The position numbers and the translations under genes were made by a program. From IMG/VR virus record IMGVR_UViG_2778261574_000002: 64,000 nt of DNA; one strand, 5' to 3'. The notes beneath the pieces were generated by a model. It made no database searches. It was given only the letters and a program-made list of their open reading frames with translations, and was not told the DNA's origin. Positions 29,912 to 30,221 of the stretch are shown piece after piece (position 1 is the first letter of the stretch; each line of letters starts with the position of its first letter). The stretch comes from a virus. Its lineage: Duplodnaviria; Heunggongvirae; Uroviricota; Caudoviricetes.

Positions 29912-30000
29912 CAACGTTGAGAACACTGGTTGTCACGCGCAACGCAACATTTATTCGTAGATTGGGATATGACCCCGTTACGCCAGTGTTCTCAACGTTG
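29912..30000. repeat. perfect 18-bp inverted repeat with 53-nt spacer
   Basis: CAACGTTGAGAACACTGG (29912-29929) and CCAGTGTTCTCAACGTTG (29983-30000). Confidence 0.5.
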
Positions 30001-30147
30001 TAGTGCCGGTTACGGTTCCGGCCAGGCCTCTTCCTCAACGGGGTGTTCTCCATACGGACTACCGTTTATTGGTCGTTCCTGCGGTTTATGTTGTGAAGCC
30101 AGATGCTTATCTTCTGGTTGCTTCAAAGAGCTGCACTTCATCACAAC

Positions 30148-30221
30148 GGTAAGAGCATTTATGGCTCGCATCGCGGGAAAAAGCCCACGGTAGAGAGTCG
30201 AACTCTACAAATGCTCTTACC
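30148..30221. repeat. 13-bp inverted repeat enclosing an inverted T-arm-like hairpin
   Basis: GGTAAGAGCATTT and AAATGCTCTTACC; internal GTAGAG-AGTCGAA-CTCTAC. Confidence 0.45.

Follow-up and report, generated by a model that had tools for sequence, protein, structure and literature searches.

What role do long hairpins play when they are set between the tRNA genes of a phage operon? This question is raised by the 64,000-nt DNA of IMG/VR virus record IMGVR_UViG_2778261574_000002, the whole of which is called the window below. The window derives from a P1-like phage, and its positions 29400-31000 are 90-94% identical to P1, P7, D6, RCS47, and Ro157c2YLVW. A preliminary description of this region recognized two long inverted repeats between tRNA genes and suggested that they might be processing signals, remnants of tRNA genes, or small-RNA structures. 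We find that they are two of four related hairpins (E1 to E4), and that these belong to a family of hairpins that punctuates phage RNA-gene arrays, standing at the borders of tRNAs, STnc100-like small RNAs (sRNAs), and an RNA resembling the tag-encoding part of transfer-messenger RNA (tmRNA). The earlier view of processing signals or RNA structures was broadly right but too narrow, because it missed the four-member set, the cross-phage family, and the sRNA and tag-RNA units. Phage tRNA and sRNA genes are usually annotated singly, and to our knowledge little has been established outside T4 about how such RNAs mature from long read-through or antiterminated transcripts.

Both repeats noted previously lie between tRNA-Ser and tRNA-Thr. 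The perfect 18-bp inverted repeat with a 53-nt spacer (29912-30000) is present exactly as described, and forms the core (29912-29929 / 29983-30000) of hairpin E2, whose 23-nt arms (29907-29929 / 29983-30005) are 96% complementary. The sense strand of E2 is 5'-CACUACAACGUUGAGAACACUGG...CCAGUGUUCUCAACGUUGUGGUG-3', and the 53-nt interior carries the motif CAUAUCCCAAUC. By our own arithmetic, about 1e-4 perfect 18-bp inverted repeats within 150 nt are expected by chance per 64 kb.

The arms of the 13-bp repeat in E3 (30148-30160 / 30209-30221) are 100% complementary and 48 nt apart. Considered alone this repeat is borderline, with about 0.1 expected by chance; we regard it as above chance because of its extended stem and its membership of the hairpin family. 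In folding, the stem reaches ~19-20 bp when one bulged A is allowed, with the layout CACAAC / bulged A / GGUAAGAGCAUUU ... AAAUGCUCUUACC / GUUGUG. Its interior contains a second small hairpin in addition to the T-arm-like hairpin GTAGAGAGTCGAACTCTAC (30190-30208) that had been described as reversed. That orientation applies to the plus strand; as transcribed, from the minus strand, this hairpin reads GUAGAG-UUCGACU-CUCUAC, which is the tRNA-sense orientation.

The two additional members, E1 and E4, were not part of the earlier pair. E1 is followed by GCGGUGAAUGCGG of an STnc100-like RNA, and the interior of E4 opens with the T-arm-like sequence CUGGUUCGAUUAACCAG. All four hairpins share the arm consensus CAAC(N)GGUAAGAGCAUU, and neither this consensus nor any further copy of the hairpin occurs elsewhere in the 64 kb, outside the leader of the ban operon. 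Each folds more stably on the tRNA-sense strand, and their pair probabilities are ~1.0 when the entire 1.57-kb leader is folded. For E2 and E3, none of 200 dinucleotide shuffles was as stable. The P1 copy of E3 has compensatory changes in its arms (GGUAAGGGUA / UACCCUUACC) and an interior that differs from that in the window.

Relatives in other phages were first encountered by BLAST with the spacer between tRNA-Ser and tRNA-Thr, whose 3' arm and adjoining flank aligned to unrelated phages. The matched phages were lambdoid phage mEp460, Stx2 phages, Enterobacter phage Tyrion, Erwinia phiEt88, and phages of Klebsiella, Salmonella, and Edwardsiella. Their loci hold a long hairpin with the base CACAAC/GUUGUG, followed by GUGAAUGCGCAGGCUGAUGCGC. 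An exact-pattern scan of viral contigs gave at least 120 matches, and the family is found in well over 100 contigs of enterobacterial phages that are unrelated to one another, among them lambdoid, P22-like, N4-like, Ackermannviridae, and Drexlerviridae phages. Literature searches by words and by exact sequences found no description of the hairpins, and this widespread family has apparently not been described or annotated before.

The anatomy of the family is regular. A base of 4-6 bp, (CA)CAAC/GUUG(UG), carries an upper stem of 9-13 bp and a variable, branched top. The AAC and GUU of the base are invariant in all 41 sequences. Imperfections, in the form of a bulged A or a 1x1 mismatch, are concentrated 5-8 positions above the base, and 17 of 34 stems have U·G at one particular position of the upper stem. 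With 15-20 Watson-Crick or G·U pairs and one to three imperfections, the stems have ~17-23 stacked positions, or roughly two turns of an A-form helix, and several members have fewer than 20 bp. Interiors range from 30 to ~100 nt and are mostly unrelated in sequence. The 3' flank GUGGUGAAUGCG is joined to GUU at 195 sites in 176 loci.

The preliminary description had proposed folding and covariation analysis across phages as a check, and the stems prove to covary strongly. Among 34 distinct stems, 95.2% of the cells are paired, both sides change in 12 of 16 pairs, and 87 cells are compensatory (for example, in the arms GGAAAGAGCA/UGCUCUUACC, GAGAAGGACA/UGUCCUUGUCG, UGUAACGACGC/GCGUCGUUACA, and GGGGAUCGCUUU/AAAGCGAUUUCC). 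None of 500 shuffles reached the observed values, and slid registers pair at 41-60%. Selection on the hairpin stem acts on structure, not on sequence.

The hairpins are RNA structures of the tRNA strand. G·U pairs account for 78 of 724 stem pairs (11%), and folding favors the tRNA-sense strand for 39 of 48 distinct hairpins, with a mean ΔΔG of -5.6 kcal/mol. Where tRNA genes lie within 600 nt of a family hairpin (56 loci), all 103 are on the same strand and none is on the opposite strand. The hairpins are also set in a precise register with their neighbors. They begin 1-3 nt after the CCA of a tRNA (tRNA-Thr for E3, tRNA-Ser for E1), after an intrinsic terminator, or after a small GC hairpin ending in ...GCAC(C)A that is the 3' end of an STnc100-type or tag RNA. 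The 5' end of the next structured RNA directly follows each hairpin. That a covarying hairpin recurs in P1-like, lambdoid, P22-like, N4-like, Ackermannviridae, and T1-like phages points to a signal for RNA maturation that these groups have in common, and the hairpin offers a simple marker for unannotated RNA genes in the "intergenic" regions of phages.

By homology to the annotated P1 record, all four hairpins of the window sit in the untranslated leader of the C1-controlled ban operon, on the minus strand (Table 1). The order on that strand is dmt, Oban/Pban, an sRNA at the DicF position with its terminator, the tag RNA, E4, an unnamed structured unit, tRNA-Arg, tRNA-Tyr, tRNA-Thr, E3, a unit, E2, a unit, tRNA-Ser, E1, an STnc100-like RNA closing with a U-run, two open reading frames (ORFs), a tRNA with a CAT anticodon, and ban. 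No sigma-70-like promoter was predicted between 31250 and 29300. A terminator scan of 29300-31250 gave a single site, that of the DicF-position sRNA, and none at any hairpin. Over ~1.7 kb of the leader there is no credible ORF. The Pban/Oban palindrome, judged by homology to the P1 annotation, would be the start of the transcript that carries the hairpins, tRNAs, sRNAs, and tag RNA, and the RNA genes of the leader are predicted to be co-transcribed from Pban as one transcript.

Table 1. Features of the ban leader region of the window, in minus-strand order (MFE, minimum free energy; z, z score of folding stability)
Feature	Position	Strand	Remarks
dmt	31155-33419		first in the minus-strand order around the ban leader
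Palindrome where P1 has C1 operator Oban / promoter Pban	31132-31169	.	assigned by homology with annotated P1
Intrinsic terminator of the DicF-position sRNA	30945-30971	-	placed by the terminator scan at 30971-30952
Tag RNA	30762-30941	-	~180 nt; between the DicF-position terminator and E4
Hairpin E4	30684-30761	-	directly after the 3' hairpin of the tag RNA; ~20 bp; z -5.7
Unit between E4 and tRNA-Arg	30479-30683	-	ends in CGCCGGAGACGUACCCGGCAAGU, an STnc100-type 3' hairpin
tRNA-Arg	30402-30478	-	
tRNA-Tyr	30310-30396	-	
tRNA-Thr	30230-30305	-	
Hairpin E3	30142-30228	-	starts 1 nt after the CCA of tRNA-Thr; z -6.5
Unit between E3 and E2	30001-30141	-	ends in hairpin GGCCGGAACCGUAACCGGC, then ACUA
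Hairpin E2	29907-30005	-	23-bp stem, one mismatch; MFE -55.9 kcal/mol; z -7.4
Unit between E2 and tRNA-Ser	29784-29912	-	GUGGUGA-AU-GCGCAGGCUGAUGCGC ... GCCGGAGAUCAGCACCGG-UCGCCAC; STnc100-type architecture
tRNA-Ser (UGA)	29690-29776	-	called by ARAGORN; Rfam match solely via the tRNA-Sec model, 41.8 bits
Hairpin E1	29577-29689	-	begins directly after the CCA of tRNA-Ser; ~19 bp, two mismatches; z -3.6
STnc100-like sRNA following E1	29449-29580	-	RF02076, 35.1 bits (gathering score 47), E 1.6e-5

We tentatively favor, at a little less than an even chance, the reading that E1 to E4 are RNase III-type processing stalks that free the neighboring RNAs. Host RNase III would recognize each hairpin as a stalk and cut near the bulge or mismatch. 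After the cut, a short 3' trailer would remain on the upstream tRNA or sRNA, to be trimmed by exonucleases, and the same cut would make the 5' end of the downstream RNA. It may also free the capped top of the hairpin as a small stable RNA. Such a stalk fits best because of the geometry of the hairpins, their position at RNA-gene borders, and their single-transcript context. Because the hairpin base with its 3' flank (GUUGUG-GUGAAUGCG) is nearly identical in unrelated phages, it also acts as a recombination junction for the exchange of RNA-gene modules, in line with the homology breakpoints given below, and the hairpins in this way help explain the mosaicism of phage RNA-gene regions.

RNase III takes ~22 bp of double-stranded RNA, and bulges can direct single-strand cuts (PMC6212723; PMC11745405). 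A substrate of this enzyme is expected to offer ~20-22 bp; the E2 stem has 23, and those of several members have fewer than 20. Location on the transcribed strand, also expected of a substrate, is evident from the G·U asymmetry, the co-oriented tRNAs, and the lack of a predicted internal promoter. In the homologous prophage operon dicBF, RNase III takes part in the release of DicF (bioRxiv 10.1101/2023.04.14.536235). The dicBF site was considered as a direct homolog of the hairpins and rejected: its cut falls ~137 nt upstream of DicF in a different sequence (10.1101/2023.04.14.536235), and therefore the analogy holds at the operon level only.

Known RNase III stalks include the 16S- and 23S-flanking stems of rrn operons, the T7 early R-sites, the λ N-leader and sib, and the 5' stem of ManS. 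Like these, the phage hairpins are long and imperfect, lie in polycistronic transcripts between functional RNAs including tRNAs, span about two helical turns, lack a U-tract, and have a bulge or internal loop of the kind that can direct a cut; the parallel in ManS is the bulge-directed cut that generates it. Unlike them, the phage hairpins never vary in the AAC/GUU of the base and hardly vary in the 3' flank, enclose 30-100 nt rather than a large RNA, and form a module common to unrelated phages.

Several points weigh against processing by RNase III. The case for this enzyme rests on geometry and analogy, and the invariant AAC/GUU, the recurrent bulged A, and the U·G that is frequent at one set position suggest a reader more sequence-specific than RNase III is commonly taken to be. 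A canonical double cut would be made at the center of the helix, and the imperfection is near the base instead; the stems of 15-17 bp in several members are short for such a cut. The covariation alignment itself leans toward structure, because bulges were taken out by a pairing-guided procedure. Finally, some interiors are conserved between distant copies: that of E3 resembles the interior at locus L009, and 4 of 42 interiors, belonging to otherwise different hairpins, contain the loop motif CAUAWCCCAAUC, which is confined to the sense strand (in E2 at 29940-29960). Such conservation would fit a hairpin that is a functional RNA itself. Similar sequences can also be seen by eye in the P1 copy of E1 and in a second hairpin of mEp460. 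As for the processing signals or small-RNA structures envisaged in the preliminary description, the structures are borne out as covarying, tRNA-strand-specific stems at RNA borders downstream of Pban, and cleavage is the part that we propose by analogy.

An unlikely alternative is that the hairpins are never cleaved and serve as insulators or stabilizers, which allow neighboring RNA genes to fold independently, block 3'-5' exonucleases or 5'-end-dependent RNase E, and keep the long leader too structured for loading of Rho. The positional and covariation evidence is the same for this reading as for cleavage, a leader of ~1.7 kb without a credible ORF accords with it, and the hairpins do dominate the global fold of that leader. 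A generic insulator would have no need, however, for the invariant AAC/GUU, for an imperfection at a set position, or for a fixed register with the ends of neighboring RNAs, and tRNAs that end 1-3 nt from a 20-bp stem still require an endonucleolytic 3' cut.

We consider it rather improbable that each hairpin is a small-RNA gene whose variable top is functional, for example as a decoy for a factor that binds tRNAs or T-loops or as a pairing seed, while the stem is a handle like that of a microRNA (miRNA) precursor. The recurring interior types just described favor this reading, in that E3 and its L009 counterpart both contain a T-arm-like hairpin and CAUAWCCCAAUC is confined to the sense strand. 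T-arm-like hairpins are also present in E4, in the P1 copy of E3, and at loci L016, L024, and L043, and the Rfam matches to E2 are solely to miRNA-precursor models, which reflects shape. However, interiors are mostly unrelated and differ in length (30 to ~100 nt), the T-loop-like motif shows no strand enrichment (3 sense versus 2 antisense among 42 family members), and what is conserved across phages is the base and flank, not the top.

It is very unlikely that the hairpins work as DNA, either as attC-like recombination sites of folded single-stranded DNA or as linkers for homologous recombination, and so mobilize RNA-gene cassettes. The mosaic structure of the region speaks for this idea. When the window is compared with P1, Ro157c2YLVW, and mEp460, homology is lost at 29592/29597, 29888, 29927, and 30004/30005, and every one of these breakpoints falls on a hairpin arm or its conserved flank. 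The units between hairpins vary among P1, D6, Ro157c2YLVW, and the window (that between E1 and E2, for instance, differs between P1 and the window), and this P1-like phage has a 146-nt unit with 98% identity to its counterpart in lambdoid phages. Breakpoints of this kind are expected, however, at any conserved sequence.

The hallmarks of attC sites are an AAC/GTT base, extra-helical bases, and a variable top. The phage family has all of these: its hairpins are imperfect, with AAC...GTT invariant at the base, they have an extra-helical base and a variable terminal structure, and there is one site per "cassette" in an array. It departs from attC sites in other respects. CACAAC/GUUGUG differs from RYYYAAC/GTTRRRY at one position per side, the units are RNA genes rather than ORFs, and the strict co-orientation with tRNA genes, the 11% G·U pairs, and the U·G in half of the stems point to RNA. 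A single-stranded DNA site would exchange at G|TT, and here the 3' side of the base is always joined to one downstream sequence; the constant GUGGUGAAUGCG after GUU therefore leaves no cassette boundary at that junction. No integrase context is evident, and integron-type integrases are not known from these phage groups. Another comparison is with the PeSL elements (promoter-early stem-loops) of T4-type phages, which are mobile regulatory cassettes, and with the "boundary sequences" in lambdoid mosaics, since they too are short, conserved, structured sequences at module borders, where they coincide with recombination junctions. PeSLs carry an early promoter and flank protein genes, whereas the hairpins are promoter-less, flank RNA genes, and have covarying stems.

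That the hairpins are decayed tRNA genes or functionless chance palindromes, or that the region codes for Upl and Plp on the opposite strand, is scarcely credible: T-arm-like hairpins do occur in E3 and E4 and the P1 record does annotate upl and plp over E2 and E3, but no tRNA model matches the hairpins, strong covariation in unrelated phages excludes both chance and decay, and in the window Plp is frameshifted and interrupted by stops and Upl is absent.

The suggestion of tRNA remnants fails on further grounds. Neither ARAGORN nor Rfam RF00005 gave a tRNA call over E1 to E4 at E<=10, E3 and E4 hold only an isolated T-arm-like hairpin that is found in a minority of the family, and the defining stem has no tRNA counterpart. 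Pseudogenes and permuted or split tRNAs were rejected along with intact tRNA genes on this basis, the T-loop-like motifs being neither general nor strand-enriched. The ORFs annotated in P1 (1659-2228 of the P1 locus, L001) correspond to 29884-30260 on the plus strand of the window, with Plp antisense over tRNA-Thr. They are not conserved, and in Ro157c2YLVW the Plp sequence is spread across three frames. Both P1 genes, upl and plp, are probably annotation artifacts over a non-coding RNA region, and two likely spurious genes are removed in this way.

Other identities were also considered and rejected. Intrinsic terminators, for which the preliminary description rightly judged the elements too long, are set aside by the lack of a U-tract in the 3' flanks (GUGGUGAAUGCG; GUGGUGAAUG, GUGAUGAAGU, and GUUACGUCC). 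A MITE or transposon would be expected to conserve its arms, whereas these covary, and copies occur in one operon leader of the window; no target-site duplication was seen at the hairpin ends. Among known RNA families, the sole matches that Rfam 15 yields for E2 at E<=10 are to miRNA precursors and are driven by shape, and there is no Rfam C4 match that would indicate a C4-type antisense RNA of P1. Antiterminator RNAs of the HK022 put type are improbable, since the hairpins are often downstream of the terminators to be suppressed. The STnc100/PasD family (RF02076) describes the RNA that comes after most family hairpins (GUGGUGAAUGCG ... CCGG-loop-CCGG-CACCA), which has the consensus architecture. 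The hairpin itself lies outside the matched model positions 31-147, and scores are under the gathering threshold.

The RNAs between the hairpins are of interest in their own right, above all the tag RNA that precedes E4. From its 5' end it comprises a conserved segment (GGUUUUCGU...UUUAGAAACUGACC), UAAAU as a frame-setting context, a reading frame (30883->30851), an H-type pseudoknot (30838->30802), and a 3' hairpin (30794->30762). The frame, GCA AAC GAU GAU CUG AUG AUG GUA GCG GCC UAA, has 10 codons and would encode ANDDLMMVAA*. The tag encoded by E. coli ssrA is ANDENYALAA. As in tmRNA, the frame opens with GCA AAC GA and ends in Ala/Val-Ala and UAA, U-5 and A-4 stand upstream of the resume codon, the stop codon is in a small hairpin, and a pseudoknot follows. 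Unlike tmRNA, this RNA has no discernible acceptor stem, G3·U70, T-arm, or CCA domain. Rfam tmRNA models align to it weakly, with 10-33 bits versus gathering scores of 47-84.

Conservation of the tag-RNA region extends to 265 phage records from groups that are unrelated; in HK620, the region is flanked by pR'/qut on one side and the late terminator on the other. We collected 130 instances of the frame, which represent 16 peptides. All have exactly 10 codons plus TAA, with synonymous variation, and the peptides fit AN[DE][DEN]xx[LMK]x[AV][AP]; all end in A except one, which ends in ...VAP. Covariation supports the pseudoknot that follows the frame. In at least 70 of 109 distinct contexts, the distance from the resume codon to the start of a family hairpin downstream is 110-129 nt. 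ARAGORN found no tRNA-like domain in the window or in 10 further loci, and a pattern search for an acceptor stem, T-arm, and CCA within ~1 kb of the 130 tag sites gave no consistent candidate. A literature search found no description of the tag RNA or of its peptides.

In lytic Ackermannviridae and N4-like phages, the tag RNA is found amid odd tRNA-like sequences that ARAGORN does not call or that have unusual anticodons. Examples are a "tRNA-Ala CGC" and a "tRNA-Cys ACA" near the tag RNA of phage Uz-1 (L129 400-1000), and the tRNA-like GGGUUCGACUCCC...GGCUCCACA near that of Salmonella phage 38 (L132 380-1000).

These observations permit a far-reaching proposal to which we assign a low probability. 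The hairpins may be fixed joints of mobile RNA-gene cassettes common to unrelated enterobacterial phages, among which the recurrent cassette of tag RNA, hairpin, and STnc100-like RNA would be a phage device for tmRNA-like rescue or tagging. If so, the tag RNA would template a phage-specific degradation tag (ANDDLMMVAA and its relatives), a neighbor processed by way of the hairpin or a host factor would supply the missing tRNA-like function, and the phage could reprogram trans-translation during infection. Were the tag RNA translated, it would represent a new route by which phages interfere with ribosome rescue and ClpXP targeting.

Among RNAs that follow family hairpins, the STnc100 architecture is the commonest, with a terminal stem UGGUG/CACCA that closes several hairpins. 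In the window, the STnc100-like sRNA after E1 has the terminal stem UGCGGUG...CACCGCA around a multi-hairpin RNA and ends in CCGGGAGGUACCCGG-CACCGCAGC-UUUUUU. Its RF02076 score, like those of its counterparts in P1 (33.4 bits) and in the Qin prophage of K-12 (34.4 bits), is below the 47-bit gathering threshold. The Qin RNA lies between dicF and dicB (L127 ~3440-3600) and matches the full length of the model. STnc100 and PasD are Hfq-binding sRNAs of prophages (bioRxiv 10.64898/2026.05.13.724894). The P1 ban leader is thereby linked to the DicF, STnc100, and PasD regulatory RNAs of prophages. As for the other units, that between E2 and tRNA-Ser is 98% identical to sequences of lambdoid phage mEp460 and Stx2 phages, and that between E3 and E2 is partly common to P22-like Salmonella phages.

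The ends of the K-12 dicF-dicB spacer can, in our reading, form a 21-bp stem (GUGAAUUUUGUGAUGUGGUG / CACUGCAUCACAAAAUUCAU), which would be a plausible RNase III substrate in its own right. The dicF-like region annotated in P1 is homologous solely to the 5' part of the 190-nt DicF precursor of K-12 (window ~30945-31090, minus strand, versus L127 3270-3435). A different sRNA, which ends in a terminator, stands in place of the 53-nt DicF core, and the window has no match to the DicF model of Rfam.

The tRNA sets also differ between phages, with tRNA-Asn and tRNA-Thr in P1 and with Ser, Thr, Tyr, and Arg in the window. The stretches over tRNA-Ser (29690-29776) and over tRNA-Tyr and tRNA-Arg (30310-30478) match rV5-like phages (~130-140 kb) at ~83% identity, without hairpins, which suggests that tRNA genes are exchanged in and out between hairpins.

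In the window, ORFs of 275 and 78 amino acids (28382-29426, minus strand) separate the STnc100-like RNA from the CAT-anticodon tRNA, as they do in Ro157c2YLVW, whose annotation makes the larger one a putative serine protease; in P1, tciA, tciB, and tciC take this place. Farther away, positions 38536-38703 hold repeated ATGTGTGCTG(G/C)(A/C)GGGAA sequences in inverted orientation, which we take to resemble the RepA iterons of P1 and which would presumably belong to an ordinary plasmid replicon.

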